Notes: a model not told the origin generated them from the sequence alone. 47,165 bases of DNA from a virus (IMGVR_UViG_3300012041_000011:1-47165); one strand, 5' to 3'. Numbered from the stretch's first letter, positions 3,938 through 40,157 are shown. Translations and numbers: made by a program.

Positions 3938-3938
3938 A

Positions 3939-4232: not shown

Positions 4233-4241
4233 ATAGTTTAA

Positions 4242-4949: not shown

Positions 4950-4953
4950 ATGT

Positions 4954-5834: not shown

Positions 5835-5836
5835 AC

Positions 5837-6793: not shown

Positions 6794-6805
6794 ATCAGTT
6801 TCTGG

Positions 6806-7285: not shown

Positions 7286-7324
7286 AGTTTATCGCCTGTT
7301 AAGGCAAAGGAATTAAGCCTCAGC

Positions 7325-8236
7325 CTAGACAGTTCCACTCGCGATATTGTTCGCAAATTCAGCAGCGTTAGAACCAGGAACGATCGCGTTCGTGTTAGTC
7401 GCAAGCATCAGGTTGTTCTCCACAGCAATGACTGACCCGCCAAGGGCTGTCGTTCCGTAGTTAATCCCTGCGGTGAAGATGCCTCCGTTGAATTCTGTGA
7501 AGGTGTTCCCGCGAACAACGTTACCAGCATCAGCCGCAGCAGCAAAGATCACGCCAGCCGTGACTGTCCCCGTGTTGGCCGTCGTGACGCGACCAGCGAC
7601 GAAGATGTTGTGTTCGATGATGTTCCCAATTCCCAAGCCAGTCACATGAGACGTCTGAGTAATTGCGCCGCCAGAGACAACGAGGTTCGAAATGAATCGA
7701 TTCTCATGAATCCAGTTGTAATTGCAAGCAGTCGTCTCCATGAGGATGAAGTGCGATGCCGCCCCGCCAACAGCAGAAAGGAATACGTTGTCATGGATGT
7801 TGCAGGAATCTGCGCCAACCATATCAATTGCGATCTTCGTGGTGGCGAGGTTCATTCGGAATCCTGAGATCTCGATCCCATCACCGGTCACATCGAAGAT
7901 ATCAGCAGCAGAAGCTGTGAGGATCACAGACCCAGGAGAACCGAGAGCGGTGAAATGGACGTCATTCACCGAAGCAGCGATTGCAGTTGAAATTGTATAC
8001 GTGCCAGGAGTCACATAGATCACATCCCCACGGCCTGCCACGCACTGTGCAAGCGCCGTAGCGATCGAAGAGTTACCGGAATACACACGGACAACACCGT
8101 CTTCATCAACAGGGAACATCTGCTCAAAGTCAGAAATGTTAATCGAAGAAGCGGGGAGGCAGTAGAAAGACTTTCCATTCCCAGAAGGGAGAGCCTGCCC
8201 AGCCCGACCATACGAACTAAAAAGATCTCGTGCTAT
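7325..8236 (-). CDS. Right-handed beta-helix (pectin-lyase-like) protein; probable ATA start at 8236 (first ATG at 8119)
   Basis: SIATALAQCVAGRGDVIYVTPGTY and repeated IHDNVF/IHENRF/IEHNIF/VRGNTF. The frame is open 39 codons upstream to aaaatATA. Confidence 0.75.
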   Translation of the reverse strand: MARDLFSSYGRAGQALPSGNGKSFYCLPASSINISDFEQMFPVDEDGVVRVYSGNSSIATALAQCVAGRGDVIYVTPGTYTISTAIAASVNDVHFTALGSPGSVILTASAADIFDVTGDGIEISGFRMNLATTKIAIDMVGADSCNIHDNVFLSAVGGAASHFILMETTACNYNWIHENRFISNLVVSGGAITQTSHVTGLGIGNIIEHNIFVAGRVTTANTGTVTAGVIFAAAADAGNVVRGNTFTEFNGGIFTAGINYGTTALGGSVIAVENNLMLATNTNAIVPGSNAAEFANNIASGTV

Positions 8237-8348
8237 ATTTTGCTCTGGTTTGTTGAGAGGAGGTCCAGATTCCTCAGCGTAGTAATGTCACGCTTCCGCA
8301 TTTTTAGCTTCCACGCCAGATGCGGTGCAGGCGTCATTTATATGAAAA

Positions 8349-8471
8349 CTACTTCTTCTTTTTAGGTTTTGGTTTTTGTATCACAGGCCTCGCGACAGGT
8401 GACTTGGCGAACTTCACATCTCGGATGCCCACTAGATTTGGCAGTGATGCTGTATTTCCGATAGCGGGCAT
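8349..8471 (-). CDS. 40-aa basic peptide (possible DNA-binding core peptide)
   Basis: MPAIGN...QKPKPKKKK directly after the capsid gene. Confidence 0.5.
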   Translation of the reverse strand: MPAIGNTASLPNLVGIRDVKFAKSPVARPVIQKPKPKKKK

Positions 8472-8493
8472 CTGAGTTTTTGTTTACTTCTGT

Positions 8494-9534
8494 TTATGCG
8501 ACACCATCTCCACTTGAGAAGACAACGAAGCGAGGATCAAGCACAACTGGCTCATAGCAGGCAGAGGCCTTTGCTGTTGAGTTCTCGTTGTACCAGTTCG
8601 TACCGCCGTTGAATTCTGTCGGTGCGGAGAGCGTCGGGTTTTCCGTGACTTCGAGGTATGCCCCGAGGTTCATCATATCCACCATCAGCCAATACTTCGA
8701 CTTGGTAGAATCAACGTTACCCTGGTTATCAGAGTCCAACCACATCGCACGAACGAGGCGGTACTTCCCTTGGAATGGGTTGTACACACCGCTGTTCGGC
8801 GCATCCACTGGGGAGGTGGAACGAAGGATCTTCGCGAACACGTTGTACTGAGTCTGATCAGATGCGACAAGAATCACTTCCTTACGAGCCGGACGTCGGT
8901 TACCGTTGTTATCGAAGATCTGTTGGTTTGTGATGTTTTCTGCGGCTTCGAGAGAACCTGCCGATCCCTGTGGGTTAGCGGCGATGCGGTTCCGATAGGT
9001 CGTTGCAGAGTTCGTCAAGGTGTGGGCCGTGTTGTAGAGCGAGAGACCGTCACCAGTCGAAATGTCAACCGTTCGTCCATCGATGTTCACATATGTGGTA
9101 GAAGTGCCGAACGTGAACGGATGCGTAAGGTCAAGCTCGAGGCGGTAAGCCACACCATAACCCGTGTCCGTCATGAGAGACGTGAGTTGATCCGGGTACT
9201 TGTTGTGGTACATGAAGAACCACGTCCATGGGAGGGAGATCGTTCGGCGAACAACCGTCACATCCTTGTAGTAACCAGGAGCAATCGTCCCAGTAGCGAA
9301 GTCATCACCCTGGGATGTTTCCTTTGCGAGAGAGAGACCCGTCAAGCGTTCTTCAACGCGGAACGTGATGCCCATCGCTGGGCCTTCATACCGAGAGACG
9401 TAGAACTGGCGCATCACACCGTTCACTGCGGCGAAGGATTCAAAGCCTTTGTTGAAAAGAACTTTGAGGTTTGCAGTCCAGTCAACTAGAGAACTGGTGT
9501 TTGCAATGTTTGTTGGGAAAGAATTCTGTGCCAT
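8494..9534 (-). CDS. Major capsid protein
   Basis: 346 aa, in the portal-scaffold-capsid position; TGDGLSLYNTAHT and ILRSTS...N.GVYN motifs resemble Mu gpT-like HK97-fold capsids. Confidence 0.8.
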   Translation of the reverse strand: MAQNSFPTNIANTSSLVDWTANLKVLFNKGFESFAAVNGVMRQFYVSRYEGPAMGITFRVEERLTGLSLAKETSQGDDFATGTIAPGYYKDVTVVRRTISLPWTWFFMYHNKYPDQLTSLMTDTGYGVAYRLELDLTHPFTFGTSTTYVNIDGRTVDISTGDGLSLYNTAHTLTNSATTYRNRIAANPQGSAGSLEAAENITNQQIFDNNGNRRPARKEVILVASDQTQYNVFAKILRSTSPVDAPNSGVYNPFQGKYRLVRAMWLDSDNQGNVDSTKSKYWLMVDMMNLGAYLEVTENPTLSAPTEFNGGTNWYNENSTAKASACYEPVVLDPRFVVFSSGDGVA

Positions 9535-9558
9535 ATATTTTAGTTAATAAGATGGAAC

Positions 9559-9987
9559 TTAGGTCGTTGAAGTCGGGATGACCAAGTAACCAGCAATCTG
9601 AGTCGCAGAGATATAATCTGTAGACTGAAAAGCACCAACGGCTTCTGCTGCACGATTCACCGTAGAAGCGTCCGTAAGATCGAAGGTTCCACCGATATCT
9701 GTCGCAACGAGCGAAGCTGTGGTGGCGATCCAGATCGAGTTCGTGCCAGCGGTCGGCACGAGCACAGGAACCAGCGTGTTGGAAGCGTAGTCGGAATCCG
9801 TAGCAGCGATAGCCTTCTGGATTGCACCAATATGCTTGGTGGTCGTAGAAGTCGCTGGGATCATGAAACCTGTCTGAGATGCTGGCCAAGCGACCAACGA
9901 GAGGTTGGCGTACACCTGGGAAGCCGTCTTCTTGAAGAACCGCAGGGCGAAGTGGTTCGACGCAGCAGTCTTAGGGATGAATGACAT
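9559..9987 (-). CDS. Capsid decoration/cement-like protein
   Basis: Probable start MSFIPK at 9987; 142 aa, immediately upstream of the capsid gene. Confidence 0.6.
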   Translation of the reverse strand: MSFIPKTAASNHFALRFFKKTASQVYANLSLVAWPASQTGFMIPATSTTTKHIGAIQKAIAATDSDYASNTLVPVLVPTAGTNSIWIATTASLVATDIGGTFDLTDASTVNRAAEAVGAFQSTDYISATQIAGYLVIPTSTT

Positions 9988-10347
9988 AGATATAATTAAG
10001 AATCTAAATACAGAAAATACCACAGTTCGTGTGGTGTGTGAGTTGAGAACTATTCCCAACCTGCTTTGTTGTTGCACGCGCCAGCAGTAGCGCGATCATG
10101 GATTTACTGCCAAGTCAGGTCATTGAGGTTTTGCGGATTTCCTCGACAAGTCCGAAAGTGCTGTCAGGTTTGCGGGTTACTGACGTCCGAGATTGACTAG
10201 ATTGCTCATCGTCAAACCGATCGGCTGGGTATTAGTACCCCAACCTCACGGTCTGCAGAAGAACTAGATACATCATACCGCGCCCTGCAGAAAAAGAAAA
10301 ACACTAAAAAAACTCCTTACAACTTCACCTTTCCAGCGTTACCCACT

Positions 10348-11142
10348 TTAGACTTGAGATTCTGGGTCGCTGACTGGCGCGTCTTCCCCACCGCTGACAT
10401 CTTCACGTTTGTTCCCTTCATCGGAGTCACTGACGCTCTCACCATCTTCGGAGTCTTTTGGAGTTTCATGTTCGTTAAGTTTGATAATAGCTTCTTCGAT
10501 CGCCTGGAGGCGCCAACGGTCAACCGGAGAACCGATATACGCCTCAAGAGCCTGGACTTGGAGTTCAAAGACCGCCTCAGCGATCTTCTTCAGGGAGATC
10601 ACAGCCGGAAAGCCCTGTTTGATGTCTGCCATCGGGACATTCGTAGACACGAGGTGGTCGTAGATGATCTTCTCTACCGGATTCAGATCTGCAGGCTTCA
10701 CTTCTGTTCCTGTTTCCTTCAGAACATCGAGGCACTTCTGAGGCGTGAGCTCAAGTTCCCAGTGTTCTGTCTTGAAGAGCTTGTTGTTCAGCTCATTCCG
10801 GACGTTCGAGAGAGCCTGCATCACCCAGTCCATCGTAGATTGAGCGTCCTGCCAGAGAATATTGTGAGAAACAAGGTTATCTAGGACGTTCTTCTGGATT
10901 CCTTGAATGGACTTCACGAAGTATTCCTGTCGGTCTGTGTTAGGCTTCTCGGTCTTGAGTTCCCACTCATCAGCGTGTACAACTTCAGCTTCTGGCTTCT
11001 TCTCATCGTCGTAGATAACCCAAACCTGATCAACATCTTCGAGTGCGACCTTCCCGTATTCCTTCACCTTCCGATCTCCCAACCAGAGGCTATTCGCTGT
11101 TTGAGGTGCAATCGTCGGTTCTACTTTGATTTCATCAGACAT
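10348..11142 (-). CDS. Hypothetical protein
   Basis: 264-aa ORF with an acidic tail. Confidence 0.75.
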   Translation of the reverse strand: MSDEIKVEPTIAPQTANSLWLGDRKVKEYGKVALEDVDQVWVIYDDEKKPEAEVVHADEWELKTEKPNTDRQEYFVKSIQGIQKNVLDNLVSHNILWQDAQSTMDWVMQALSNVRNELNNKLFKTEHWELELTPQKCLDVLKETGTEVKPADLNPVEKIIYDHLVSTNVPMADIKQGFPAVISLKKIAEAVFELQVQALEAYIGSPVDRWRLQAIEEAIIKLNEHETPKDSEDGESVSDSDEGNKREDVSGGEDAPVSDPESQV

Positions 11143-11148
11143 ATTTTT

Positions 11149-11721
11149 CTAGTTCAAAAAACTGTGAGCAATCTGCATAGTTTCACCAGTATATGACTCT
11201 CCACGATCCGTAGAAAGAACAACGGTGTGTTTCTCATCAGGTTGATAAGGGATCGGGCGCCATTCTCCGACATTGTTCTTCTTGCAATACCCCAAGATCT
11301 TTACTGGGATCTGGTTGAACTTTGTGCGCTGGTCGAATTCTTCGTAGTGCATCTTATGTTCCTTTCCATCTTTCGTAGTGACGAGCATGAACTGCTTGTC
11401 TTCAATGTTCCCTAATCGATCAAGGGTGACCATCGAACCTGGGAGCATCTGCCATTTAATGATCGGGTTCCCATCCAATGAGCGGATGAACCCAAAGAAA
11501 TCTCCTGTCTCCTGGTTGATCTCAGTCTTCACGCCCGCCTTCTTGGCTAGCTTACCGATCACTCCCAGAGCCTGGGACAACTGTGCCTGCATTTCTCTCA
11601 ACTCATCTGCCTGCTTCTGCTCCTTGGGGGTAGAGAAGCCATTAGGGATCTCTTCAGAGGCGACAGGAGTGTTTACGATCACATCTTCAAGGGGTTTTGC
11701 TTCTTCTTGTTGTTTCGCCAT
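11149..11721 (-). CDS. Hypothetical protein
   Basis: 190-aa ORF. Confidence 0.75.
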   Translation of the reverse strand: MAKQQEEAKPLEDVIVNTPVASEEIPNGFSTPKEQKQADELREMQAQLSQALGVIGKLAKKAGVKTEINQETGDFFGFIRSLDGNPIIKWQMLPGSMVTLDRLGNIEDKQFMLVTTKDGKEHKMHYEEFDQRTKFNQIPVKILGYCKKNNVGEWRPIPYQPDEKHTVVLSTDRGESYTGETMQIAHSFLN

Positions 11722-11738
11722 AGTTTATGTGCTTTGCG

Positions 11739-12383
11739 CTAGATTTGGATATCTCCTGAGTGTTTATCGAAGTCCTCTTTGGTGAGTTTAAATTGCTTCC
11801 CGACTTCCAGCGTCTCTGGTCTGATCCCTCCGGCCGGAACTTGCGACCGAACATAACCAGCACCCGCCATCGCAGGAGCATTGAAACCTCGATCCTGTTT
11901 GCTGACCTTTGCTCGATAGTCAAAGGCGAACTCAACATCAAGAGACGGGTTACCAGACTTCGGAAGTTTCTCGACAATTTCGAGGACAGCTTTTGCTTCA
12001 GCTCTTGTGATGTTCGGTTGCTGCTTAATAAGAGAGATGATCTGTTCGTTGTATCCTTCTGCTTTCAATTCACTCTTCGCTTGGTCAACAATGGCTCTAG
12101 TGTCTACGGGCGCCGCTTCTGCGATAACAGCCTCAGGAGCTTCATCGCCTTCCTCGAGTTCTTTTACGCGACTCTCAAGAGAACGACGAGCATCGGATTC
12201 TGACTTCCGACGAGCGCGTTCATTCTTAGCGATCAAGTCTTTCTCCTTCACCAATGCATTCGCCTTGTCTAGCTGACTTTTCAGTTCAGCGACATCTTCT
12301 TGCTCAGGAGCTTCTTCCAAAGGTTCTCCTTCAGGAGTTCCTTCTACAGGAAGATCATCGAACACTTCTGTTTCTTCAGGCAT
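11739..12383 (-). CDS. Capsid scaffolding-like protein
   Basis: Acidic N-terminus and coiled coil; lies between portal and capsid genes. Confidence 0.65.
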   Translation of the reverse strand: MPEETEVFDDLPVEGTPEGEPLEEAPEQEDVAELKSQLDKANALVKEKDLIAKNERARRKSESDARRSLESRVKELEEGDEAPEAVIAEAAPVDTRAIVDQAKSELKAEGYNEQIISLIKQQPNITRAEAKAVLEIVEKLPKSGNPSLDVEFAFDYRAKVSKQDRGFNAPAMAGAGYVRSQVPAGGIRPETLEVGKQFKLTKEDFDKHSGDIQI

Positions 12384-12390
12384 GTGTGTG

Positions 12391-12687
12391 TTAGGAACCT
12401 TCGTCCTCCGGTTCCTCGTTAGATTGATCAGGTTTCAAAGTTTGGACGTGTTGGTCATGGAGCTGCTCGAACAGCTCGTAAAACTGTGTAAGGTGGACGG
12501 TCAAATCATGCATTACTTCCGCTTTGACGTAGTCCCTTGCCTTTATTGCTGAGATGCACTCCGCGTAACAGCTCTGAATCCCGAAGTCAATCTCAGTCTT
12601 GAACGCGGGCTGCCGGAAAACTGCGGCGGCACTCCCCGCGTGCGCTGGATTATCTCCAGGATCTTTAGGCTCAAAGAGGTTTAACAT
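12391..12687 (-). CDS. Hypothetical protein
   Basis: 98-aa ORF. Confidence 0.65.
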   Translation of the reverse strand: MLNLFEPKDPGDNPAHAGSAAAVFRQPAFKTEIDFGIQSCYAECISAIKARDYVKAEVMHDLTVHLTQFYELFEQLHDQHVQTLKPDQSNEEPEDEGS

Positions 12688-19870: not shown

Positions 19871-20626
19871 TCACTCGCTTTTCAATCTCTTACAATTGAT
19901 TCGAATCTCATTCTTTCTCGTTGCGGAATCCTTCACCACTTCTTCTCCCCACTTCGATTTTAGATATAAGATATTCTGCTGTTCTCTCTCCTCGTTTCGG
20001 ATATCTTTCACCCCTCCGGCTGTCTTATGTCCGAACTGAGCGAAGATGTAGTCACATCTTACTACTCCTCCATATTCATTTACGTGCTGAAGCGTGAAGT
20101 CGTAATCCTCTTTGAGAGTCATGTTCATATCAAATCTCAAGTGGGTCGGGAGACAGACAAAAAGATCCCCAAGAATGAAGTTCTTCATACACACTAAGTT
20201 TCTGAGAGACATCGGATTCGTAGTCGGGGAGATGCCTCCGAGCTTGAAGTTCAGCTCCTTAAGCCCTGTGTGAATATCTTCAGAGATGTCTTTCAGTTTC
20301 GCTTTTGGCGTCTCCTTCATCACTGCATGGCTCACTCCGAACTTACTTCTTTCGAAATGAGACTTCGTGAAGATGTATGCCCTCTCTTTTACTAAGTCAT
20401 CTGAAATCTGGCAACACGGTTCATTCTCAGAGAAAGATTCATTTAATGCGAAGTTTCTGGCTTCCATCAGTGAGAGGCCTGTAACAATTCTCATCGCTCC
20501 GTTCTTGGCGTAGGCTTCAACATCGTTGTTTTTACCTAAAAGCCATACAGCATCTACTCCATTTAGGAACTTTTCCATCAATAATGGGGCCTCTGGTCTT
20601 TGGTGGGAGATTACATAATAGCGCAT
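19871..20626 (-). CDS. TAGT/GREB1-C/JGT-like DNA glycosyltransferase
   Basis: QISDD, KEDYDFTLQH...GGVVR, AGGVKDIR...LKSKWG motifs; located in the nucleotide-modification cluster. Confidence 0.75.
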   Translation of the reverse strand: MRYYVISHQRPEAPLLMEKFLNGVDAVWLLGKNNDVEAYAKNGAMRIVTGLSLMEARNFALNESFSENEPCCQISDDLVKERAYIFTKSHFERSKFGVSHAVMKETPKAKLKDISEDIHTGLKELNFKLGGISPTTNPMSLRNLVCMKNFILGDLFVCLPTHLRFDMNMTLKEDYDFTLQHVNEYGGVVRCDYIFAQFGHKTAGGVKDIRNEEREQQNILYLKSKWGEEVVKDSATRKNEIRINCKRLKSE

Positions 20627-20759
20627 AAGTCTGTCATTTTAGATCTTGGATAGGAATGAATAACTGTTTCATCGTCCAGGTCACGTCCTGAATCTCTGAA
20701 GGGGTAAAGTCCCGAGTAAGGTTCTAAATCTTCTGTAATGGTCTGATAACCGAACAGCC

Positions 20760-21539
20760 TTATACTGAGGGACGGTAATACCGCCTGCGCCCAGTTCCTT
20801 GTCGGAGAGCGTGAATTTTTCTAACCTCACACAAACAACCTTCAACCACGCGCATCGTCACTTTACCGTACTTCTCATGGCTTATCCCTCTCTTATTCAG
20901 ATCATCTACGATCCATTCGATTTGCTCAACTGATGGCCGCTCTCCGGGGAACATCCTCTTCAGGGTCGGCTTAGCTCCTCCTCCGATGTTGCAATATGTC
21001 TCTGGCAGACCTGCAAAACTCCACCAGTCGCACATCATTTCGTATAAGATGAGACCCTTGATCCTCATCCTTTCGAAACACCCTAGAACTGTCTCTCTTG
21101 CGAGGATGGAAGTTTCAACACCAACCAAAAGTCTCTTCACTTCACCGATCTTCGTAGATCCTTTCGGCATCGCCGGTAGAACAATGAACGCGTCTCCCCA
21201 TTTGATAGAATCTGTTGTCCAATCTTCAGCCTTACCGAACTCTACTAATGGAATTCTGTTTATCTCGGATACGTTATTTATTAGCCTTAGTAAGAATATG
21301 TTGAGAATGGCATTCTCCTTGCTCATTCCTTTTATTCTCGCTTGGAGAGCTTTGGTTGTTTTATCATCCTGACGGAATATGCAGCAGAACTTATATTTCT
21401 GTAGAATTGGATCTTTTGTCCAAGGCTTCGGCTCTCCGGCTTCCTTTTTCTTTCTGATAGATTCTCTCTCCTTGATGAACCATATGAATTCTTCGTAGAC
21501 TTTTGGATCTGGGGTCATAGCTTTCCATTGATCAGCCAC
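20760..21539 (-). CDS. 5-hmdU DNA kinase helical-domain (aGPT-Pplase1-like) protein
   Basis: FIKERESIRKKKEAGEPKPWTKDPILQKYKFCCIFRQDDK and VEGCLCEVRK motifs. Confidence 0.8.
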   Translation of the reverse strand: MADQWKAMTPDPKVYEEFIWFIKERESIRKKKEAGEPKPWTKDPILQKYKFCCIFRQDDKTTKALQARIKGMSKENAILNIFLLRLINNVSEINRIPLVEFGKAEDWTTDSIKWGDAFIVLPAMPKGSTKIGEVKRLLVGVETSILARETVLGCFERMRIKGLILYEMMCDWWSFAGLPETYCNIGGGAKPTLKRMFPGERPSVEQIEWIVDDLNKRGISHEKYGKVTMRVVEGCLCEVRKIHALRQGTGRRRYYRPSV

Positions 21540-21709
21540 TTCTCAAATAGTGGGTGAGGTTCACCGGCTTCCTTCCCCTGCCACGGGAGGTTCAAGAGGT
21601 CGGCTTTGAACTTCCGTCTAATTGCGGAAGAGAATCTCTTATATGCAGACTCGCTCCTCCAGACAGAGTGCACGAGTTCCTTATTTCTGTTCTTGTCTTC
21701 GAAGGTCAT
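21515..21709 (-). CDS. Hypothetical protein
   Basis: 64-aa ORF coupled to both neighbours. Confidence 0.5.
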   Translation of the reverse strand: MTFEDKNRNKELVHSVWRSESAYKRFSSAIRRKFKADLLNLPWQGKEAGEPHPLFEKWLINGKL

Positions 21710-21885
21710 TTGCGTCTCTTCGGCTTCTTGAGAGAGATGTTCAATCTCAACGAGGTGTCATCTACCACATACCGATAGGTAGACTCACGGGTCATCTTCG
21801 CCTTGAGGAATCCTTTCTGAATCCGGTAGATGACTCCAGACCTACTCATCCCCAAAGATTTAATAGCTTGTGCCAGTGTTGCCAT
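21706..21885 (-). CDS. 59-aa excisionase/MerR-like HTH protein
   Basis: MATLAQAIKSLGMSRSGVIYRIQKGFLKAK; ATGA overlap; below the ORF-track cutoff. Confidence 0.65.
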   Translation of the reverse strand: MATLAQAIKSLGMSRSGVIYRIQKGFLKAKMTRESTYRYVVDDTSLRLNISLKKPKRRK

Positions 21886-22474
21886 ATTTCTCCTTTTGTC
21901 TTTTGAGTTTCATTTTTAATCTATATGCTCTCCTAACTGCTCTAACCATATTGTCCCTATGTTTCTTTGTGAACGGTACGCCTCTTTTATGCTCAACATT
22001 ATGGCAAGAACGACAGAGAACTTCAAGATTTTCTACAGCATTATTAGTGTTGTCATGATCTTTGTGATGAACGATAATCTGCCTTCTGCTTCCGCATCGT
22101 TCACAGACACGAGGCTTCTTATAAATATCGAACACAATACGATTATAATTTCTTCCTTTCCAATTTGGATTGTTCTCAAGCCGTTGGCTGTCTCCGAGCT
22201 TTTTTAGATGTATCAAGAATTTAGATCTAAATTCTGGGTTCTTCCATACTTTAATCATTGACAACTTGCTCCTTTCAGAAGCCTCTTCTTTATGTTTCGG
22301 ATCTGAGCGATACCATTTCTTTATGCTCCTTGAAAGCCTTTTCTTGACAGCAGGATTTTTATATGTCTCTCTATTTGAATCCCCTATCTTCTTCCTGGTT
22401 TCTTTTGAGAGCTTCCATCCACGCTTATTGACCATCTGCTCTTCACTCCATTTATATCCCTTCGGTACTCCCAT
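21860..22474 (-). CDS. NUMOD3-HNH homing endonuclease
   Basis: SKETRKKIG, ENNPNWKG, CERC, VHHKDHDNTNNAVENLEVLCRSCH. Confidence 0.9.
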   Translation of the reverse strand: MGVPKGYKWSEEQMVNKRGWKLSKETRKKIGDSNRETYKNPAVKKRLSRSIKKWYRSDPKHKEEASERSKLSMIKVWKNPEFRSKFLIHLKKLGDSQRLENNPNWKGRNYNRIVFDIYKKPRVCERCGSRRQIIVHHKDHDNTNNAVENLEVLCRSCHNVEHKRGVPFTKKHRDNMVRAVRRAYRLKMKLKRQKEKYGNTGTSY

Positions 22475-22868
22475 ATTTCTCAACAGACATCTTCTTCATA
22501 AGTATAGGGGAAACGAAAGAATTAGGGTGAGCGGAGCTATGGTAATCACGCACGTAAAAGACTTTGCTCACCCCGGATTCACTCATTGCTTTTAGACAAG
22601 AAGTGCAAGGACGCTCAAGACTAACGACCGTAGACCCTTTGAGTGCAACACCATTCTTCGCAGCGGTTGCGACCATATCTACTTCTGCGTGAATTGCGCT
22701 TACACAATGATTTTCTTCGATGATACATTCCTTCTCTCCGCAGTGATGATTGTATCCCATCACTTCGTCTGGGTTGTCGTCATCTGTGATGGCAATCGCA
22801 GCACACTGCGCCCGTGGGCAATCAGATTCCTGAGAGGTGAGAACGAGCTTCTCAATGATTCGTTGCAT
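22452..22868 (-). CDS. dCMP deaminase-like protein
   Basis: HAE...PCTSC zinc motifs, MGYN. Confidence 0.9.
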   Translation of the reverse strand: MQRIIEKLVLTSQESDCPRAQCAAIAITDDDNPDEVMGYNHHCGEKECIIEENHCVSAIHAEVDMVATAAKNGVALKGSTVVSLERPCTSCLKAMSESGVSKVFYVRDYHSSAHPNSFVSPILMKKMSVEKYGSTEGI

Positions 22869-22869
22869 A

Positions 22870-23757
22870 TTATTTATATGATACCTTACGAACACCAATG
22901 AGATAGTCCATATAGGTTTTAATCGGCTCTGGAAATCTATTCTGTGGTAAGGAATTGGGATCTGCCTGTTCTGTAGTGATCCAGAAAGAAATCTTGTTGA
23001 ACATTTCCTTTAAGTGATCCCTTGCTTCATTGAGAGACATTCCATTCCATTCTGGATGAATCAGGTCAGAGTATTCCTCAGTTCCATTCTTTTGTGCGTC
23101 TAAAACCGCTCTGAGCTGATCTTCCCGTTCATTATAGGAGTGCATACTTCCTGCTTGATGGATGTACCAGCCTGTTGGGATCTTCAAATCAGAAGCAAGG
23201 GCCTTCCCGAGAATCCCAAACTGTGAGACATCATTCGGCAGACCCCAAAGGATGTCATTCGATCTCATTGTAGAGATCATATTCAATCTACCGTCTCGGA
23301 TGAGGAATTGCAAATTGAGTGTGCAAGGCCTATCTAGCGAGTTGGTGTTGATCGCATCTGAGACAGAATAGATCGGGATTACTGCTTGTCGCGTGTCCGG
23401 ATCTTTTTCAAGCTGGTCTCTGATTTGAAAGAGACTCGCACCGATTCTCACCGGATATGCCCCGTCCCAGGTGTTAGTGATCGGATTGAGAAAATCCTTC
23501 ATGTTCTTATTCACATGTAGGATGATATCTGTTGGGACTTTCCCGCAGATATTTAGAAGCCCCTCGAGCAGCGCGAAGCGTGTCGGCAGCTTTCGGCTCT
23601 TTTGGAGAGGAGTCGGCTGAGAGTAATCTTCAAGTTTGAACTGATAGGCCAGCATCTCACGTATAGGTTTCCCTCGTGGAGCACAGTGAGATCCGTTCGT
23701 GAGAACGTCTTTGATGATCTCTGGGTAGGCAGACGTGATGTCATGATATGTTCTCAT
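22870..23757 (-). CDS. Thymidylate-synthase-fold enzyme, dCMP hydroxymethylase-like
   Basis: DTRQAV, PCT, MRSNDILWGLPND, HQAGSMHSY; Asp at the position of ThyA Asn177. Confidence 0.85.
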   Translation of the reverse strand: MRTYHDITSAYPEIIKDVLTNGSHCAPRGKPIREMLAYQFKLEDYSQPTPLQKSRKLPTRFALLEGLLNICGKVPTDIILHVNKNMKDFLNPITNTWDGAYPVRIGASLFQIRDQLEKDPDTRQAVIPIYSVSDAINTNSLDRPCTLNLQFLIRDGRLNMISTMRSNDILWGLPNDVSQFGILGKALASDLKIPTGWYIHQAGSMHSYNEREDQLRAVLDAQKNGTEEYSDLIHPEWNGMSLNEARDHLKEMFNKISFWITTEQADPNSLPQNRFPEPIKTYMDYLIGVRKVSYK

Positions 23758-24221
23758 AGAAGTGACCAATGGTTAGAGAACGCTCGAACCTTGAAAACTG
23801 TCAACTTCGGATAAGCAGCCGCAATACGCTTCGCTTCTTTCAGGAAAAGGTTCTGAACCTTCACGGCTTCATCTGGGGTGATATATGTTTCCTTCTCTTC
23901 CACACATCGGGCTTTGAGCTTATCTGCGTAGTCCCACAAAACGAGCAAGATAGCTCCTCGATCTTCCATCTTTTTTAGATAAGAAGCATACTCCTCATCT
24001 GTCCAATCTGAGGCATGCTTTTTGACTTTTGCGTAAACCTTCTCACCAAGTATGAATCTATCGAGCACGACGTTCTCTTTTTCAAAAGCTCCTCCGAAAT
24101 ATTCTAAAGGATGTTTGTCAGGTTTTGAATAATGAATCCATTCTGCCCCGAACTTCTCTGCGAGCTTCTTAGATAATTGTGACTTGCCCGTTTTGTCACA
24201 TCCCTCAACTGAAATCATCAT
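23754..24221 (-). CDS. dNMP (thymidylate-type) kinase
   Basis: EGCDKTGKS P-loop, VLDRF. Confidence 0.85.
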   Translation of the reverse strand: MMISVEGCDKTGKSQLSKKLAEKFGAEWIHYSKPDKHPLEYFGGAFEKENVVLDRFILGEKVYAKVKKHASDWTDEEYASYLKKMEDRGAILLVLWDYADKLKARCVEEKETYITPDEAVKVQNLFLKEAKRIAAAYPKLTVFKVRAFSNHWSLL

Positions 24222-24571
24222 AGCTTTTGTGCAACGCGATTTAGATTTATATCGTTCTTCCTCACATATTCATTGAAGAAGGAATCAGCGTCTAACCCAG
24301 AAATAAGAGCAAGAGCAACAACGATATGTTGGATGTCGCTCAGTTCTTCATGGAGTTTGTCATAGTCGATCTTCTTCCCAGCTGATGTCGCTCTCCAAAA
24401 TTTCCTGCTCGGAATTTCACGAAGAAACTCTACAGCTTCTTCAACGAGAAGCTGCCAATATGTTTGAAGATATTTGGATCTATCTTCTTCTGATGAGATT
24501 GATTCAATTGGAATGAAGTTTGCGGCAAGCTTCTTTTGTCTGTCGAACAGTTCCTGTAATCTGTCGCTCAT
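24218..24571 (-). CDS. All-alpha dUTPase/dCTPase (MazG-like)
   Basis: EEAVE...KFW...EELSDI...KNDIN. Confidence 0.85.
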   Translation of the reverse strand: MSDRLQELFDRQKKLAANFIPIESISSEEDRSKYLQTYWQLLVEEAVEFLREIPSRKFWRATSAGKKIDYDKLHEELSDIQHIVVALALISGLDADSFFNEYVRKNDINLNRVAQKL

Positions 24572-24768
24572 ACTTCACAGCACTCACACGGCCCGACAGG
24601 AAGTTCAGCGGCGGTGATTATTTGTGCGACTAAATTATTACATGCTTCGCACCAAATACGTAGAGTATCTGGATTATGCATTCCAACAGCAATATTATCA
24701 GGCCTTCCTTTTTTCAAACATTTCTTGCAGTGAAAGTACACAGCAATGTCTGGTTCTTTTTTGTTCAT
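24568..24768 (-). CDS. Small Zn-binding protein
   Basis: CKKC, CEAC, CECC; start placed at MNKKE because ATG 24810 abuts the -10 box. Confidence 0.55.
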   Translation of the reverse strand: MNKKEPDIAVYFHCKKCLKKGRPDNIAVGMHNPDTLRIWCEACNNLVAQIITAAELPVGPCECCEV

Positions 24769-24810
24769 ATCATTGAAAGAAGAATTATTCTGCGTTCGAC
24801 CTTTGGACAT

Positions 24811-25055: not shown

Positions 25056-25295
25056 ATGGAAACTTTTTCTAAAGACACTGCCGAACTCTTCCGCTTTATC
25101 CGCTCAGCCTACGAAAAAGCACATGCAGGATACATGGCAGGAAACATGACCCAAGATGAATTCTTCAAGGTGAAGAAAGTCTTCGCGTCCGCTCAACAGC
25201 ATCTCATGCCTTCAAAGGGGAAGGCGATGCGTGAGATTGAAAAAGATCTCGCTAAGAAATACGGAGACTCATACTCAACCGGAAAACGGGTATGA
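25056..25295 (+). CDS. Hypothetical early protein
   Basis: First ORF after the promoter. Confidence 0.7.
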   Translation: METFSKDTAELFRFIRSAYEKAHAGYMAGNMTQDEFFKVKKVFASAQQHLMPSKGKAMREIEKDLAKKYGDSYSTGKRV

Positions 25296-25314
25296 GTCTT
25301 TTAGAATAAACAAT

Positions 25315-25647
25315 ATGCATGAAAAACAAGAGAAGTTAGAAACGATTGTACGCCGCGTTCTTTCAGAAGATATCAACACTCGAAACTCTGATCAACTTCT
25401 CACATTAAAGGTTTGGTATGAGATTTCTCCAAGTTCGTTCTGTCAAATCTTAAGTGAGTGGTATGTCTCCGTTGAGGCAATCAAGACCCACTTACCTCAA
25501 GAGAACTCTGTGAAGCGAGTCCGGGCGAAGATCCAGAATGACCACCAAGAATTAAAACCAACTGACGAAGCAGTCTTGCTCAAACGATCTAAGTCTAAAA
25601 AGAATCAAGAAACGCTTTCTCAATGGGAGAGCAAGAATCTTGAGTAA
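25315..25647 (+). CDS. Hypothetical protein
   Basis: Probable start MHEKQ; TRNSD..L...VW and ENSVKRVRAKIQN. Confidence 0.7.
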   Translation: MHEKQEKLETIVRRVLSEDINTRNSDQLLTLKVWYEISPSSFCQILSEWYVSVEAIKTHLPQENSVKRVRAKIQNDHQELKPTDEAVLLKRSKSKKNQETLSQWESKNLE

Positions 25648-26830: not shown

Positions 26831-27304
26831 ATGAAACAACTCACTGGAAAAGCCCTGATGATGAAAGAAGCAATCTTTGATGAAGGAAAGAGAATGACCA
26901 CAAAAGAATGGTCGAAGGCATTGTATGGAAAAGACGATCGAAATAAAGTAGGATGCGTCTATTCAATCATGAAGAGAATGCTGAATAACGGTTACGGGGT
27001 TGTTGCCTATCCTTCTGACCCAGAAGATATAAGCTCCCCAAAGAATCTTGTTCCGCTCACTGAAAGTGTAGAAGTGTCTCGTTATGCGAACTCAGCTCAG
27101 AAATCAAGAATCGACGGCAACGCTTTGAAGTTCGGCGTTCAAAGTATGCTTGAATTGGAAGTCTACCCAGAAATGGGTAAGGAGATTGCCGAGATGTTCG
27201 AAGATACTCTCAAGGCTCTTGTTGGCCAGAAGAAACTTATCCTAGCGATTGAAGAACCTACATATGTCAAGAAGTTACAGAGTGGTAATGGTTCCAATAG
27301 ATAA
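26831..27304 (+). CDS. Hypothetical DNA-binding protein
   Basis: 157-aa ORF. Confidence 0.65.
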   Translation: MKQLTGKALMMKEAIFDEGKRMTTKEWSKALYGKDDRNKVGCVYSIMKRMLNNGYGVVAYPSDPEDISSPKNLVPLTESVEVSRYANSAQKSRIDGNALKFGVQSMLELEVYPEMGKEIAEMFEDTLKALVGQKKLILAIEEPTYVKKLQSGNGSNR

Positions 27305-28163
27305 GATCACCCGAGACCCGACCCAGCCTCGGAAGATCTTTTCTAAGGAAGGGATCGAGGAACTTTCAGAGTCCATTAAAGAACACGGAGTCATTAAAAA
27401 CATTGAGGTTGATGACAAGTATCAGATCATTTCAGGAGAGAACCGCTGGAGAGCTGCAAAGAGAGCAGGCTTGAAAGAAATCCCTTGCCGGATTATTGAA
27501 CTCACAGAAGTAGAAAAGCCTAAGAGACAGTTACACGAGAATATCCACCACATCCCGATGAACCCTGTTGATATCGGGAAAGCGATTCATGAGGTAAATA
27601 AGCAAAGCGGTGGAAAGATGACCGGAGAGGAACTCGCGAAGGTTTTTGGGAAGAAACGGAAGTGGGCGACCGATCATATGTCGATCGCAGATATGCCCAA
27701 CTTCTTCCAAGAAGCTATGAATGACGGGAAATTAACCGTCGGCTCTATTCAGGTGTTACGTTCAATCTTCAAGAAGGAACGTGTCGGGGTTCTGAAGAAG
27801 GGTTCTTTTGACAGAGTGGTGAATAAAATCCTGAAAGAAGAACTAACTCTTAACGCGATCAGGGATCTCGCTTCCGGTATCGCCAATTCCCCTGAACATT
27901 TAGATAAGTTTCTTAAACTTCCGCTCAAAGGTAAGCTCACAACAGAAGTCAGGTTCCTCATTGAGGGTATTTCCCCGTCGTTAGCAAGCGCGGCAATTCA
28001 CGGGAAGATATCACAGGATAAGTTCTTATCAATGGTCAGATCTTGTAAGAATAGAATCTACAGCCTCCCGTACGCAGACGTAGGAATCCGTAGAGGAGAG
28101 ATTAAGAAAGAGATCATCTCATTAGAGAAGGTTATTACTCATTGGTTAAAAGAAGCGAACTGA
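27264..28163 (+). CDS. parB: ParB/Spo0J-like protein
   Basis: QPRKIF, ELSESIKEHGV, IISGENRWRAAK, EN, HTH. Confidence 0.9.
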   Translation: MSRSYRVVMVPIDKITRDPTQPRKIFSKEGIEELSESIKEHGVIKNIEVDDKYQIISGENRWRAAKRAGLKEIPCRIIELTEVEKPKRQLHENIHHIPMNPVDIGKAIHEVNKQSGGKMTGEELAKVFGKKRKWATDHMSIADMPNFFQEAMNDGKLTVGSIQVLRSIFKKERVGVLKKGSFDRVVNKILKEELTLNAIRDLASGIANSPEHLDKFLKLPLKGKLTTEVRFLIEGISPSLASAAIHGKISQDKFLSMVRSCKNRIYSLPYADVGIRRGEIKKEIISLEKVITHWLKEAN

Positions 28164-28493: not shown

Positions 28494-28988
28494 ATGAAGG
28501 AGGAGTGGAAAGAAATTAAAGGGCATGAAGGAAGATATGAAATAAGCTCTTTCGGAAGAATAAGATCTGTATCAAGGATGTGCCATAATGGTAACGGGAT
28601 GAGGAAAGTGAAGGGTAAGATATTAACACTGTACACAAATTGCGCGTATCCCTCATATGGGTGGCGCATGTCCCCGCACCGCCTTGTTGTGGAACACTTC
28701 ATTGGGAAAATCACAAAAGGATTAGAAGTGAACCACAAAGATGGTAACAAACATAACAATCGTGTTACTAATTTGGAAATTGTTTCAAAAAGTGAAAACG
28801 AAAAGCATAAGTATCATACATTAGGATATAAGATACACAATTTGAAGCTTACTAAAGAAATCGCTAGTGAAATCCGAAAGAAATATAAAACAAAGAAGTA
28901 TTCTTACCCAGATCTCGCGAAGGAATATGGAGTCTCTCATATGACAATAGGCAGGATAATACGCCGCGCGCAGATTTCATACTTATAA
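28494..28988 (+). CDS. NUMOD4-HNH homing endonuclease
   Basis: [23 protein letters not shown]; HRLV; [17 protein letters not shown]. Confidence 0.92.
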
Positions 28989-30661: not shown

Positions 30662-31277
30662 CCTTCCCTCCCTCTGCCTCGTCGTGCCTTCAGTGTTGTG
30701 GGCGTGATCTGGCGGAGAGAGGGGTGGAGAAATCCATCCTAATTCGTTGTTGAATCGATGAATTAAGCGATATGCCGAGCTTCGGTTCGGCGGTCGCCCG
30801 CGCGAGACATCGCAACCAAGACGAAAGTCGATAGGAGTTGCCTCTCGCGGGCGGGTAAAACCGCAGGTAAATAGCGCAGCGTGGGCGGATTGTCGGATCG
30901 CGTCCGAATACGAGTCGCCCTCGGTCCTGTATACGCGTTGCGCTCTCGCCTCTGCCGTTTGTGGGGTAGCACGGAGAAAAACCGTGCACCTGTAATCGAA
31001 AGATTACCGCGAACTTTGGCTCACACAAACGGCGAAGGCGGGTAAAACCGCAAAGCGATCTCGATGATCGGTGTATTACCCAGATTCTAGAAATGGGTGG
31101 GAGTAAAAAACCCGTCAACAAGTGTTCATCGAGCGTCGCTATGGGTACACACAATGAACAACACACAAGCGGTGCGAACGGATGTAATGACCGTTCGGTA
31201 AATGGCAAATCTCTGCTATCAGCACAGCCGATCTGTTGAGACGTGTGTATCCGTAGCGTCGCGCTCCAATCGCTTAA
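30662..31277 (+). ncRNA. Large, highly structured non-coding RNA of unassigned class
   Basis: Nested helices closed by TTAAGCGAT(30763)/ATCGCTTAA(31269); UUCG and GAAA tetraloops; G-U pairs favour the + strand. Confidence 0.7.
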
Positions 31278-31282
31278 GAAAT

Positions 31283-31654
31283 ATGGCATTACGAATCAAC
31301 AAACAGAAAAATAATAAAAGCGGATTTACGGGAGTTTGGTATCGAAAAGACCGCAGAGCGTGGGTCGCGACGATAGAAAGCAAGCGCTACCACCTAAAAG
31401 TCTCTAAGCAGTTTCATTCACTTGAAGAAGCGAACCGTTGGAGGGTGGAGTATTTGAGCGGAAGACCTGACCTCGTGGCAGACCATAGACCGAATTGTTC
31501 CAAGTGTAAGAAAAGAAAAGATGTGAAGGATTTTAATGTAGATAGATCCCGTGCTCGTGGCGTAGAGACAATCTGTAGAGAATGTTCTCGTAAAAAACAA
31601 AAAGCACGATACGCTAAACACTTAAAATCCCTCCCCCTCTCATCGCTTAAATGA
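31283..31654 (+). CDS. AP2-domain plus Zn-finger DNA-binding protein (homing-endonuclease-derived)
   Basis: NKSGFTGVWY...WVATI...FHSLEEA; CSKC...F...CREC; no obvious catalytic domain. Confidence 0.75.
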   Translation: MALRINKQKNNKSGFTGVWYRKDRRAWVATIESKRYHLKVSKQFHSLEEANRWRVEYLSGRPDLVADHRPNCSKCKKRKDVKDFNVDRSRARGVETICRECSRKKQKARYAKHLKSLPLSSLK

Positions 31655-36608: not shown

Positions 36609-38489
36609 CTATTCTCTCTTCCTAGAAATGTTCAATTGAGTCGGTAGACGATATTTACCGTCTTCTTCCTGTTGTAACCCAAGAGCCGCTAGCGGGAGGG
36701 CGGCAAATGCTTCTACTGGGCCTTTATGGTCAGGCTTCACATCCACCTCAAACCAGCTTACTCCTTGTTCATCAGTTACGAGCTTCGCGCCGTATTTTCC
36801 TTTGAGATACTTCGCCACGTCTTTTTCGTAAAACTTGTAGATGGGGTCATGACTACCGAAGCTTACCCATGGCGCAGGCATTTGAACAATATGACCAATA
36901 GTTTCTTTGTTGTCTTCGAGTGCGTCAACAACTTTCAGCACCAACGCATCGCCTTCCACTGCTTGGATTTCGTAAGTGAACTCGTTAAAGCTCTCAAAGA
37001 TCTTATCTCCGACTTTAGTTGTTTCTTTCAACAACGGACTTCCAGATACAACATGAGAAAAAACATGTGGGTTGTCTCTATTTTCCAGGCCCTCAATCTG
37101 CATTGCAGTTTTCCCTGTTGGGAACTGAAGTTTCGTTTTTCCATCTTCTGCTGCTTTCTTCACTTCTTCTCGGATCATTCGGAAGTGAGCGGTGGGATCG
37201 TTGTATTGTTTGAGCTTCTTCGTAGCATCTATCGCCGCTTGTTGTGCATTTTTTGCACCCTTTGTACCTCCGCCGTAGCGATTGATAATCGAACCATACG
37301 ACTCGTCGGGGTTTTCGGCTTGGCGAAAAATATCAGTTGTCTCTTTTTCAAGATTCCCCTTCTGATACAAATCACTCTGCACCTCAATCACTCTCCGAGT
37401 AGAGTTGTCAGCCATGTCTTCTACACGGGTGTGGCCGAAGTAGTTCTTTACCTTCATATTACTCCCATCTTCAACGTTCCCCCAATGCACATCTCCAGCT
37501 GAGGTCTTGATAGGGCTTTCGAAAATATGCTCATCGTAGTCTTTCACAGCCCCACGAAGCTCATCAGGGAGTGAAATGTTCTCGTATCTACCAGTCATCT
37601 GACTATCTGAAACATGTTTCACCTTCAGTGGGAGCAATTCCGTCTTCACCTTCTCTGCGAACTCTTTCACGTTCACCTTATCTCCTTTTTGAGAGTCTAG
37701 GATGTTTCTTAGGAGATCTCTCTCGACCTGCTTCACATCTCCAGAGTTTGTGAGGTCTGAGATGAATTGCTTACTTACGATTGATTTACCTTTTAGTTTA
37801 TCTACAATCTTAGTTGTCAGATCTTTGAAGCCTTGGAAGGTGTCGGGGACTTTAGGCATCGCGGGAGACTTCTTCCCCATTGATTCCATCCACCCCTCTG
37901 CAGGCTTCTTACCTTTGAAGAGAGCAGCTTCTTCTGCGGCAGCTTCTTTATCTAAAAACTTCTTCACAGCTTTAGGGGATAGCTTCTTCGCTGCACCTCT
38001 CCCGACAGCTCCCAATTCTCCAGTCTGTCCCATCGTAGCGCCCATGATCTCGTTCCTTGAGACTTCAGCGGCTTCAGGGCTGAACGCAATTCCTCTCGCC
38101 CGAGCGGCTTCTGGCGTAGTCCCCTGTTTTATCCCCTGTTCTAACAAAGCCCCTTTTGTCCGTTGAGAGGCGACGAAGTCTTGAGGAGCAGACATAAGTT
38201 TCTGTGAAAGTGGACGGCTATCGAACATCTGTTGTTCAGCCTCGGATTTGGCTACTTGTCTCCGAGCAACGTCCATATCGGCTGGGAAGGCCATTGAAGA
38301 GGCTCCTGGAGTCACCGTGGAAGCCCCTGGAAGGCCTTTAGAGAGGTTTAGAACCGATGGAAGGCGTAAGTTACGTAACCAGTTCCCCGCACCCGTTACA
38401 GCGTCCTGTAGGGGCTTCTGCAGACCTCCTAAAAGAGGGCTAGATGAGCCTGTTGGATTTGGGGAGGAAAATGAGGAGATTTGTGGCAT
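36609..38489 (-). CDS. Putative ejected/internal virion protein with an uncharacterised domain
   Basis: 626 aa after two ejection-type genes; FGHTRVED...IEVQSD...QFPTG motifs. Confidence 0.65.
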   Translation of the reverse strand: MPQISSFSSPNPTGSSSPLLGGLQKPLQDAVTGAGNWLRNLRLPSVLNLSKGLPGASTVTPGASSMAFPADMDVARRQVAKSEAEQQMFDSRPLSQKLMSAPQDFVASQRTKGALLEQGIKQGTTPEAARARGIAFSPEAAEVSRNEIMGATMGQTGELGAVGRGAAKKLSPKAVKKFLDKEAAAEEAALFKGKKPAEGWMESMGKKSPAMPKVPDTFQGFKDLTTKIVDKLKGKSIVSKQFISDLTNSGDVKQVERDLLRNILDSQKGDKVNVKEFAEKVKTELLPLKVKHVSDSQMTGRYENISLPDELRGAVKDYDEHIFESPIKTSAGDVHWGNVEDGSNMKVKNYFGHTRVEDMADNSTRRVIEVQSDLYQKGNLEKETTDIFRQAENPDESYGSIINRYGGGTKGAKNAQQAAIDATKKLKQYNDPTAHFRMIREEVKKAAEDGKTKLQFPTGKTAMQIEGLENRDNPHVFSHVVSGSPLLKETTKVGDKIFESFNEFTYEIQAVEGDALVLKVVDALEDNKETIGHIVQMPAPWVSFGSHDPIYKFYEKDVAKYLKGKYGAKLVTDEQGVSWFEVDVKPDHKGPVEAFAALPLAALGLQQEEDGKYRLPTQLNISRKRE

Positions 38490-38515
38490 ATTTTAGACGG
38501 GGTTGGGGCGGGGGC

Positions 38516-38544
38516 TTGCTTTTTTCTGAGAAAAGAGGTATAGT
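38516..38544 (+). promoter_or_regulatory. Copy of the early promoter, antisense to the virion operon
   Basis: TTGCTT-N17-TATAGT followed by GT, as at 24925-24953. Confidence 0.75.
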
Positions 38545-38576
38545 GTCAAGTCACTCAATAATCAACCACAAAATAT

Positions 38577-38633
38577 ATGATCTACGGAATTATCATTGTT
38601 ATCTGTTACTCAATCTACAAGGCTCTTGACTAA
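38577..38633 (+). CDS. 18-aa hydrophobic peptide MIYGIIIVICYSIYKALD
   Basis: Own promoter; aaaatatATG context like the capsid gene. Confidence 0.55.
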   Translation: MIYGIIIVICYSIYKALD

Positions 38634-40148: not shown

Positions 40149-40157
40149 ATCTATTGG

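Follow-up and report, generated by a model that had tools for sequence, protein, structure and literature searches.

We asked which modified base a phage would make when a cytosine-type synthase stands in the same gene run as proteins tied to 5-hydroxymethyluracil (hmU). The question is raised by IMGVR_UViG_3300012041_000011, a 47,165-nucleotide (nt) stretch of viral DNA (the whole of it is called the window below), in which six enzyme genes lie on the minus strand from 24571 down to 19871. We favour, at roughly an even chance, a cytosine-first route, in which a 5-hydroxymethyl-dC (hm-dC) nucleotide would be deaminated to its hm-dU form and hmU in DNA would be glycosylated, perhaps beside 5-hydroxymethylcytosine (hmC). 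In this route dCMP would be converted to 5-hydroxymethyl-dCMP (hm-dCMP) by the only thymidylate synthase (TS) homolog, and the adjacent deaminase would turn part or all of the hm-dC nucleotide into the hm-dU form, as gene neighbourhoods suggest. By analogy with characterised families, the deoxynucleoside monophosphate (dNMP) kinase would phosphorylate the modified nucleotide and the pyrophosphatase would remove a competing dNTP. The glycosyltransferase (GT) would then add a sugar to hmU in DNA, again judging from neighbourhoods. We prefer this route over glycosylated hmC because three of the four tail cassettes of the lineage come from hmU contexts. An initial annotation, made from the sequence alone, had offered the same route to a base-J-like product as one of two options, and its core point, a cytosine-type synthase in company with hmU-tied genes, holds.

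All six enzyme genes that it named have Pfam matches, that of the TAGT-like protein below the cut-off, and the kinase reading of one of them did not hold; it had passed over the HNH gene and two small open reading frames (ORFs). The first four junctions of the run are ATGA overlaps or a 1-nt gap. In the order of transcription, the run reads as follows (lengths in amino acids, aa):

24568..24810, minus strand: Cys-rich ORF of 80 aa, probable first gene of the run; ATGA overlap with the pyrophosphatase gene; no Pfam or PHROG match
24218..24571, minus strand: all-alpha (MazG/dUTPase_2/PRA-PH-like) dNTP pyrophosphatase (NTPase), 117 aa; PF08761 E 2e-8; phrog_173
23754..24221, minus strand: P-loop dNMP kinase, 155 aa; Thymidylate_kin PF02223 E 3e-6
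22870..23757, minus strand: ThyA-fold enzyme, 295 aa, predicted dCMP hydroxymethylase; PF00303 E 3e-17 and diagnostic residues
22452..22868, minus strand: Zn-dependent cytidine deaminase, 138 aa; PF00383 E 9e-11; begins 2 nt past the TS stop
21860..22483, minus strand: free-standing NUMOD3-HNH endonuclease; overlaps the 3' end of the deaminase gene
21706..21885, minus strand: 59-aa ORF, helix-turn-helix-like by eye; 40-42% to ORFs of L081 and L089; no Pfam or PHROG match
21515..21709, minus strand: 64-aa ORF; ATGA overlap with the PF18723 gene; no Pfam or PHROG match
20760..21518, minus strand: clade-1 aGPT-Pplase by sequence and model, 252 aa; PF18723 E 2e-20
19871..20626, minus strand: GT-A-fold TAGT/JGT-like glycosyltransferase, 251 aa; TAGT (PF20691) E 1.5e-4

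A predicted dCMP hydroxymethylase

Asp142, Cys145, Asp168 and Asp176 of the window TS correspond to ThyA positions 143, 146, 169 and 177, and the set is identical to D143/C146/D169/D177 of T4 gp42 (ThyA numbering is used below). According to PMC13326640, Asp177 directs the enzyme to dCMP, Asp or Glu143 gives a hydroxymethyl product and Asn169 marks a hydroxylase. The PCT and RSNDILWGLPND motifs were both found, and Asp176 aligned with Asn177 of ThyA and with the Asp of T4 gp42, just as the initial annotation had described. The catalytic Cys145 and the Asp at 177 were invariant in 18 of 18 aligned relatives, and the best PDB match was the CMP hydroxymethylase MilA (E 7e-18). In a quick tree with long branches (27 Asn177 rows and 25 rows with Asp177 only), the window TS fell within the Asp177 clade (SH-aLRT 96), separate from the Asn177 hydroxymethylases. 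SPO1 gp29 and PaMx11 gp51 have Asn177, unlike the window enzyme, and the 5-methylcytosine (5mC) enzyme of Xp12 has Asn143 and a dihydrofolate reductase (DHFR) neighbour. Asp169 is retained, and we rejected a 5-hydroxy-dC synthase on that ground.

No second TS was found among the window ORFs, which thus lack the separate ThyA for dTMP of the T4 system, and searches of the window genome for ThyX, Tet_JBP and DHFR (PF00186) found none; the Tet_JBP search was positive on its control, G012. Given the diagnostic residues and the lack of a second TS, ThyX, Tet_JBP and DHFR, hm-dCMP is the predicted first product and this enzyme the sole visible source of hydroxymethyl groups. That the window TS makes hm-dCMP is a strong prediction, which we consider highly probable.

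The run could also be read in the order of SPO1, with the deaminase converting dCMP to dUMP and the TS acting as a dUMP hydroxymethylase despite its Asp177. All tail genes would be compatible with hmU, SPO1-group gp29 enzymes ranked near the top by tblastn score among cultured phages (33-35%), and the bacterial locus L367 does show an Asn-to-Asp change within the Asn177 clade. However, Asp177 confers dCMP preference (PMC13326640) and is kept by every aligned relative, and the window enzyme sits in the Asp177 clade rather than being a point variant of the Asn177 clade, so we regard this order as unlikely.

Two further observations concern synthase genes elsewhere. The TS gene near 15152 in L005, which encodes an Asn177 synthase, is interrupted just ahead of the catalytic Cys by more than 100 extra aa; these include an HNH-like motif, end in VVHN and look like an intein. 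L313, L356, L358 and L382, three of them bacterial contigs, have Asp177 synthases with a weak ADDT-profile match within 10 kb and no PF18723.

Conservation of the run and its variable last slot

L081/L082, L088 and L089 repeat the order NTPase, kinase, TS (Asp177), deaminase, small ORFs, PF18723, their proteins being 36-56% identical to those of the window (44-53% for the NTPase and 40-47% for the dNMP kinase against their L081, L088 and L089 counterparts). Such a shared order is more than chance and shows a real run, kept in three further phage lineages. The NUMOD3-HNH gene is missing from the equivalent site in L081, L088 and L089 and is probably a mobile insert. Only the last slot varies, being occupied by a GT in the window and in L089, by ADDT and a P-loop kinase in L088 and by an FkbM methyltransferase in L081. 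The L088 ADDT matched PF18724 at E 1e-12 with E-T-x-x-C kept, and the kinase beside it is of the hmU-kinase type (HH probability 94.8%, 159 columns). Neither the deaminase nor the L088 ADDT, used as a query, found additional loci; further pairs of this kind (P0005/P0028, P0007/P0029, P0002/P0063 and P0008/P0064) are hinted at indirectly, by agreement in the length of the longest contig.

Asp177 synthases keep company with PF18723 beyond these loci as well. The complete genome G001 (L384) has a single TS (Asp177), a deaminase, PF18723 and a PF18748 kinase domain (27.4 bits against a cut-off of 27), and TET and ThyX were not found in it. A second lineage (L169-L179, L205, L215), which is larger and has a polymerase-like gene of its own, combines TS (Asp177), PF18723 and GT with a divergent deaminase, and in our trees its PF18723 and GT proteins fall within groups of Asn177 partners.

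The contents of such tails are diverse. An FkbM-family methyltransferase follows PF18723 directly in two Asp177 phages (L081 11187-11900 and L012 8792-9499), and 10 of the 103 Asn177 clusters likewise have an FkbM gene nearby; its role might possibly be, as a guess, O-methylation of the hydroxymethyl group. In G001 (L384 1066-7917), PF18723 is followed by a methyltransferase, a B12-binding radical SAM protein, an unknown 324-aa protein, a radical SAM/SPASM protein and an hmU-kinase-methyltransferase fusion.

The glycosyltransferase and its neighbourhoods

Against TAGT (PF20691) the window GT scored 22.2 bits, below the Pfam cut-off of 27.5, which its relatives P0066 (40% identical) and P0081 exceed. 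Its model (predicted local distance difference test, pLDDT, 93.6) has the GT-A fold, and Foldseek matched it to AvpGT (E 8e-6) and TarP (E 2e-4). The published TAGT/JGT motif is R...DDD...EDY/F (bioRxiv 2023.12.21.572611), and the window protein has R10, SDD75-77 and EDY173-175. Fold and motifs agree with the TAGT/JGT-type assignment of the initial annotation; the Pfam score is short of the threshold.

Among the best 80 viral GT loci (33-40% identity, many of them near-kin), 73 had a Tet_JBP-type gene, 57 had ParB and none had a TS; the Tet_JBP domain was Pfam-confirmed in one representative and in another record. A quick, long-branched tree built from every sixth GT match placed the window GT in a 20-row clade (support 99) together with 14 such loci, and the dioxygenase was present in 13 of the 14. 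A motif scan for C5-methyltransferases, run with no positive control, was negative in all 80 loci, and a Pfam check found one in a single record of four (a partial record, ∼9 kb from the GT), while two near-complete records had none. Dioxygenases that are linked to ParB and have no methyltransferase next to them convert T to hmU by oxidation (PMC13229309). Because the GT neighbourhoods have the same architecture as these ParB-dependent T-dioxygenases, we read them as hmU-type, which points to hmU as the acceptor base of the window GT.

The PF18723 protein is not a kinase

The initial annotation had assigned the protein at 20760-21518 to the 5-hmdU-DNA-kinase family. It does match PF18723 (73.9 bits against a cut-off of 25), with a Pfam alignment that covers the N-terminal third only, but the kinase function fell away. 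Proven 5-hmU DNA kinases are all P-loop proteins (PMC8989533), and no Walker A motif or P-loop was found in the window protein, which matched PaMx11 gp50 (25% over 270 aa, E 5e-12) and not the proven kinase gp49. Its model (pLDDT 93) is a helix-hairpin-helix (HhH) fold, to which gp46 and HhH glycosylases match at Z 5-8.6. The top structural match is the glycine:DNA transferase gp46 (VIA: Z 8.6, root-mean-square deviation 4.4, 192 aligned), a moderate score for a helical protein, and Foldseek by itself gave no match at E 0.001. Glu226 and Cys230 align, at the same spacing, with the catalytic Glu243 and Cys247 of gp46 in a profile alignment that is non-significant (E 0.39), and the Thr ligand is Gly here. 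With no P-loop, a likeness to PaMx11 gp50 and an HhH fold, we rejected the 5-hmU DNA kinase; by sequence and model the protein is a clade-1 aGPT-Pplase, a fold-relative of the amino-acid:DNA transferases.

The amino-acid:DNA transferase (ADDT) family (PF18724, clade 2) had no window match at E 0.1, a home-made ADDT profile was likewise blank in the window ORFs, and PF18724 was not found in five Asp177 records (a search with no positive control). That the window lacks an amino-acid:DNA transferase, as first annotated, is correct by Pfam, with the qualification that the PF18723 protein appears to be a fold-paralog keeping the Glu/Cys pair. A search of the window for PF18748, run with no positive control, gave no match, and a home-made kinase profile matched only the dNMP kinase, weakly. 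With no 5-hmU DNA kinase found in the window genome, the 'phospho' hypermodified cytosine of the initial annotation loses its enzyme.

The current Pfam name of the family, 'HMUDK_hel', probably goes back to SP10 gp186 (L387 12383-14296), in which PF18748 (at 35-193) is fused to PF18723 (at 313-598) and the kinase domain is active alone (PMC8989533). The correction affects every genome annotated with that name. GenBank labels both the SP10 gp186 gene and PaMx11 gp49 'terminase small subunit'.

What, then, might the protein do? SPO1 retains hmU. The PF18723 family is absent from SPO1 (PMC5889632), and in SP10, PhiW-14, M6 and ViI the hmU of DNA becomes a hypermodified base or thymine (PMC8989533). 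In the same source, M6 gp55 is dispensable for the transfer step, and borohydride with gp51 yields thymidine. Our guess is that the PF18723 protein performs Cys-thiolate chemistry on hydroxymethyl-pyrimidines in DNA, possibly the hmU-to-thymine step, and the clade-1 protein is a candidate for the hmU-to-thymine enzyme of M6, ViI, PhiW-14 and SP10. The Glu-Thr pair of gp46 holds a metal that is bound to O4 of the base (PMC11472151), a contact that we infer would be impossible with cytosine. As a loose parallel to this HhH-fold gene, the 5mC operon of Xp12 includes an HhH-GPD glycosylase-like gene (L188 46973-47455).

The nucleotide-pool enzymes and a survey of synthase neighbourhoods

The window NTPase aligns with T4 gp56. 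In a spacing-based match, its Ala occupies the position of a Gln in T4 gp56 and of an Asn in the 15599 dTTPase/dUTPase. The dNMP kinase is predicted to phosphorylate the modified monophosphate. In the deaminase, HAE...PCxxC is intact, clade-specific GYNH/HAEVD variants are kept in four of four, and a quick tree with long branches put the enzyme in a distinct clade, not near that of Xp12. The window has a PF00383 deaminase in cis with an Asp177 TS, the context by which mSCD enzymes are recognised. In work on deaminases from such contexts (bioRxiv 2024.12.05.627091), 34 of 56 active ones prefer 5mC, mSCD-B5 converts hm-dCTP to hm-dUTP, and T4 gp42 and gp1 together with certain phage deaminases bring hmU into E. 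coli DNA. In the same work Xp12 is thought to obtain its T from 5mC by deamination, and 5-modified-cytosine selectivity is polyphyletic.

Another explanation would be an Xp12-like 5mC phage, whose TS would make 5m-dCMP and whose deaminase would yield the thymidine nucleotide. The layout is indeed that of Xp12, where a PRA-PH enzyme precedes the TS and a deaminase comes directly after it, and most proven 5-modified-selective deaminases stand beside 5mC synthases (bioRxiv 2024.12.05.627091). Such a phage would leave the tail genes without a hydroxymethyl acceptor, however, whereas the GT, ADDT and kinase of the variable slot all require a hydroxyl; Asp143 stands where Xp12 has Asn, DHFR is absent, and we consider this explanation very improbable.

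The neighbours of the two synthase types were surveyed with home-made profiles up to 10 kb away, after the TS genes of loci L001-L383 had been grouped into clusters at 80% identity. Among 123 PF18723-linked clusters, 103 were D143/N177 and 20, including the window, were D143/D177. The 103 were accompanied by a deaminase in 3, an HD hydrolase in 46, a GT in 28 and ADDT in 25, and the 20 by a deaminase in 15, an HD hydrolase in none, a GT in 12, ADDT in 1 and a dNMP kinase in 13; three of the five without a deaminase are truncated contigs. Outside PF18723 neighbourhoods there were 44 D143/D177 clusters (17 with a deaminase, none with the window GT family) and 6 N177 clusters. Fisher tests on the cluster counts gave p 2e-12 and 0.014, which we do not rely on because the rows are related. 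In a quick PF18723 tree with long branches, using 55 of 102 Asn177 rows, the starred branches require that the partner type switched between Asp177 and Asn177 three times or more.

Glycosylated hmU or glycosylated hmC?

Could the product instead be glycosylated hmC alone, as in T4? The NTPase would then be a dCTPase, an ordinary dCMP deaminase would feed the host TS, thymine would be normal, and the GT and PF18723 proteins would be retargeted to hmC (or PF18723 would act on hmU:G pairs arising from deaminated hmC). This is a real possibility, although short of an even chance. The NTPase, TS (Asp177) and deaminase together are a known modified-cytosine signature in MetaGPA contigs (PMC8670742), and so any novelty lies in the tail genes only. 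The alignment of the NTPase with T4 gp56, the lack of HD hydrolases beside all 20 Asp177 clusters and a best PHROG match of the GT annotated as beta-glucosyl-HMC-alpha-glucosyltransferase all agree with glycosylated hmC. What speaks for hmU instead is the last slot, drawn from hmU contexts in three of four lineage loci (two GTs nested among Tet_JBP loci, one ADDT with kinase). In addition, the L088 ADDT retains the O4-binding metal site, the clade-specific motif changes of the deaminase are kept throughout, and the window GT family accompanies none of the 44 Asp177 clusters without PF18723, a count in which the hidden Markov model may miss other GT families. The cytosine-first route is further favoured by the contrast in deaminases between PF18723-linked Asp177 and Asn177 clusters (15 of 20 against 3 of 103), by G001, in which the only TS is Asp177 and an hmU-kinase-type domain is present, and by the precedent of hmU made with T4 gp42, gp1 and phage deaminases in E. 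coli.

Several points weigh against the cytosine-first route. Deaminases are routine beside Asp177 enzymes, as the 17 of 44 clusters without PF18723 attest. A T4-style supply of dUMP to the host would account for deaminases beside such enzymes. Since the loci were drawn with PF18723 or TS as query, are in many cases closely related and have truncated flanks, the counts do not represent independent events. The dTMP-removing HD enzyme was not found in the window ORFs with a home-made profile, and L088 is a 12.4-kb fragment whose full genome may have another source of hmU. Only 7 of 90 deaminases gave hmU with T4 gp42 and gp1 in E. coli, and the TS partners of five of the seven made 5mC rather than hmC, which weakens any generalisation to hydroxymethylases (bioRxiv 2024.12.05.627091). 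The initial annotation had taken the characterised JGT family to act on hmU, a view that is too narrow, as the tested phage TAGT enzymes, which lie outside our GT tree, act on hmC (PMC8256090, bioRxiv 2023.12.21.572611).

Counter-examples were also found among other genomes. Of four cultured PF18723 phages checked (from 60 listed of 113 matches), three have Asn177 and one, Microbacterium phage Zepp (MN908686; L469 3733-8934), has a D143/D177 TS with PF18723, two TAGT enzymes, a kinase and MazG. A PF00383 deaminase was not found in the 40 kb of Zepp, where several small genes have no Pfam match, although those of the controls Xp12 and PaMx11 were found; a literature search showed no account of the DNA chemistry of this phage among its listed results. 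The 99% complete G006 has an Asp177 TS and PF18723 without a deaminase, in a run that stops at the contig end, and L261 joins PF18723 to a T4-like TS, a ThyA and a canonical-looking deaminase. Zepp, G006 and L261 indicate that PF18723 needs no phage deaminase and that PF18723 alone is no proof of hmU; Zepp and G006 moreover fit glycosylated hmC. Nine Microbacterium records match the PF18723 query, among the matches listed.

If the cytosine-first route operates, is T the only base replaced? We hold hmC at C positions with hmU at T positions to be somewhat more likely than hmU alone, since the nucleotide pool would contain hm-dCTP and a DNA polymerase was not found among the 69 window ORFs scanned. 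A fuller scheme, which we offer tentatively, is that one hydroxymethylase and one deaminase feed both pyrimidines. In it hmC would replace C and hmU would replace T, with hmU glycosylated in a base-J-like manner and the remainder perhaps converted to thymine by the clade-1 aGPT-Pplase, and several lineages would have exchanged an Asn177 synthase for an Asp177 synthase and a deaminase.

Each enzyme family is known, and the combined wiring was not found in the literature searched. In that literature (most subscription journals lay outside its coverage, and the supplements of two bioRxiv papers may list such contigs) we found, among the results listed, no report of a natural hm-dC-to-hm-dU route or of double substitution. 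Annotation now equates Asp177 with 'modified cytosine' and Asn177 with 'modified thymine', and, if the cytosine-first route is true, a class of phages that recurs breaks this rule. The run would also be a natural example of a route to hmU that has so far been only artificial, in E. coli, in the literature covered, possibly with both pyrimidines replaced. Should glycosylated hmC prove true, an hmU-linked family and a base-J-type GT would have been retargeted to hmC, giving a new hypermodified cytosine.

Genome context

An entire phage genome makes up the window (class direct terminal repeats, with a repeat of 123 bp; 100% complete); it encodes a terminase, a portal-sized gene product, a DnaB helicase, a loader, Erf and ParB. 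Scans for promoters and terminators gave no more than chance would (10 vs 9.2 and 4 vs 4.5). Two further HNH genes lie at 28494-28988 and 31202-31654, and the ParB-like gene at 27249-28163 (plus strand) has no Tet_JBP partner in the genome. The ORF at 25231-25647 (plus strand) resembles by eye, through a TRN-D-LL motif, the 101-108-aa ORF preceding PF18723 in L012, L081, L088 and L089, and unlike these counterparts it is placed outside the run. In the structural region (36609-47098 and 2315-12687) most ORFs, of up to 641 aa, have no PHROG match, and two have M23-like peptidase domains.

Comparison with known systems

The hmC system of T4 (gp56 dCTPase, gp42, gp1 kinase, cd and glucosyltransferases) has four nucleotide-pool enzyme types in common with the window. 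The window differs in having no second (ThyA) synthase and no visible phage polymerase, in having PF18723 and in keeping its genes in one run; in addition, the T4 beta-GT is of the GT-B type (bioRxiv 2023.12.21.572611), whereas the window GT is GT-A and TAGT-like. The 5mC system of Xp12 likewise has a PRA-PH-type NTPase and an Asp177 TS with a deaminase directly after it, and the logic proposed for Xp12 and mSCD-B5 is that one synthase supplies both pyrimidines through deamination. In contrast to Xp12, the window has Asp143 rather than Asn143, no DHFR, and a GT and PF18723 downstream.

In the clusters of PaMx11, M6, ViI, PhiW-14 and SP10 a clade-1 aGPT-Pplase stands beside a hydroxymethylase (gp50-gp51 in PaMx11), as in the window, and L088 adds ADDT and a kinase to the likeness. 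The synthase of those phages is, however, of the Asn177 (dUMP) type, and the window lacks PF18748, PF18724 and the HD hydrolase and has a GT instead. Zepp shares the D143/D177 TS, PF18723, TAGT enzymes, kinase and MazG with the window but has no PF00383 deaminase, and its GTs are only distant, partial matches. Finally, phage TAGT and the trypanosome JGT of base J share the GT-A fold and R...xDD...EDY with the window GT, whose nearest viral kin lie in ParB-GT-Tet_JBP clusters. The window differs from these TAGT systems in having no Tet_JBP, which means that its hydroxymethyl acceptor must come from the nucleotide pool.

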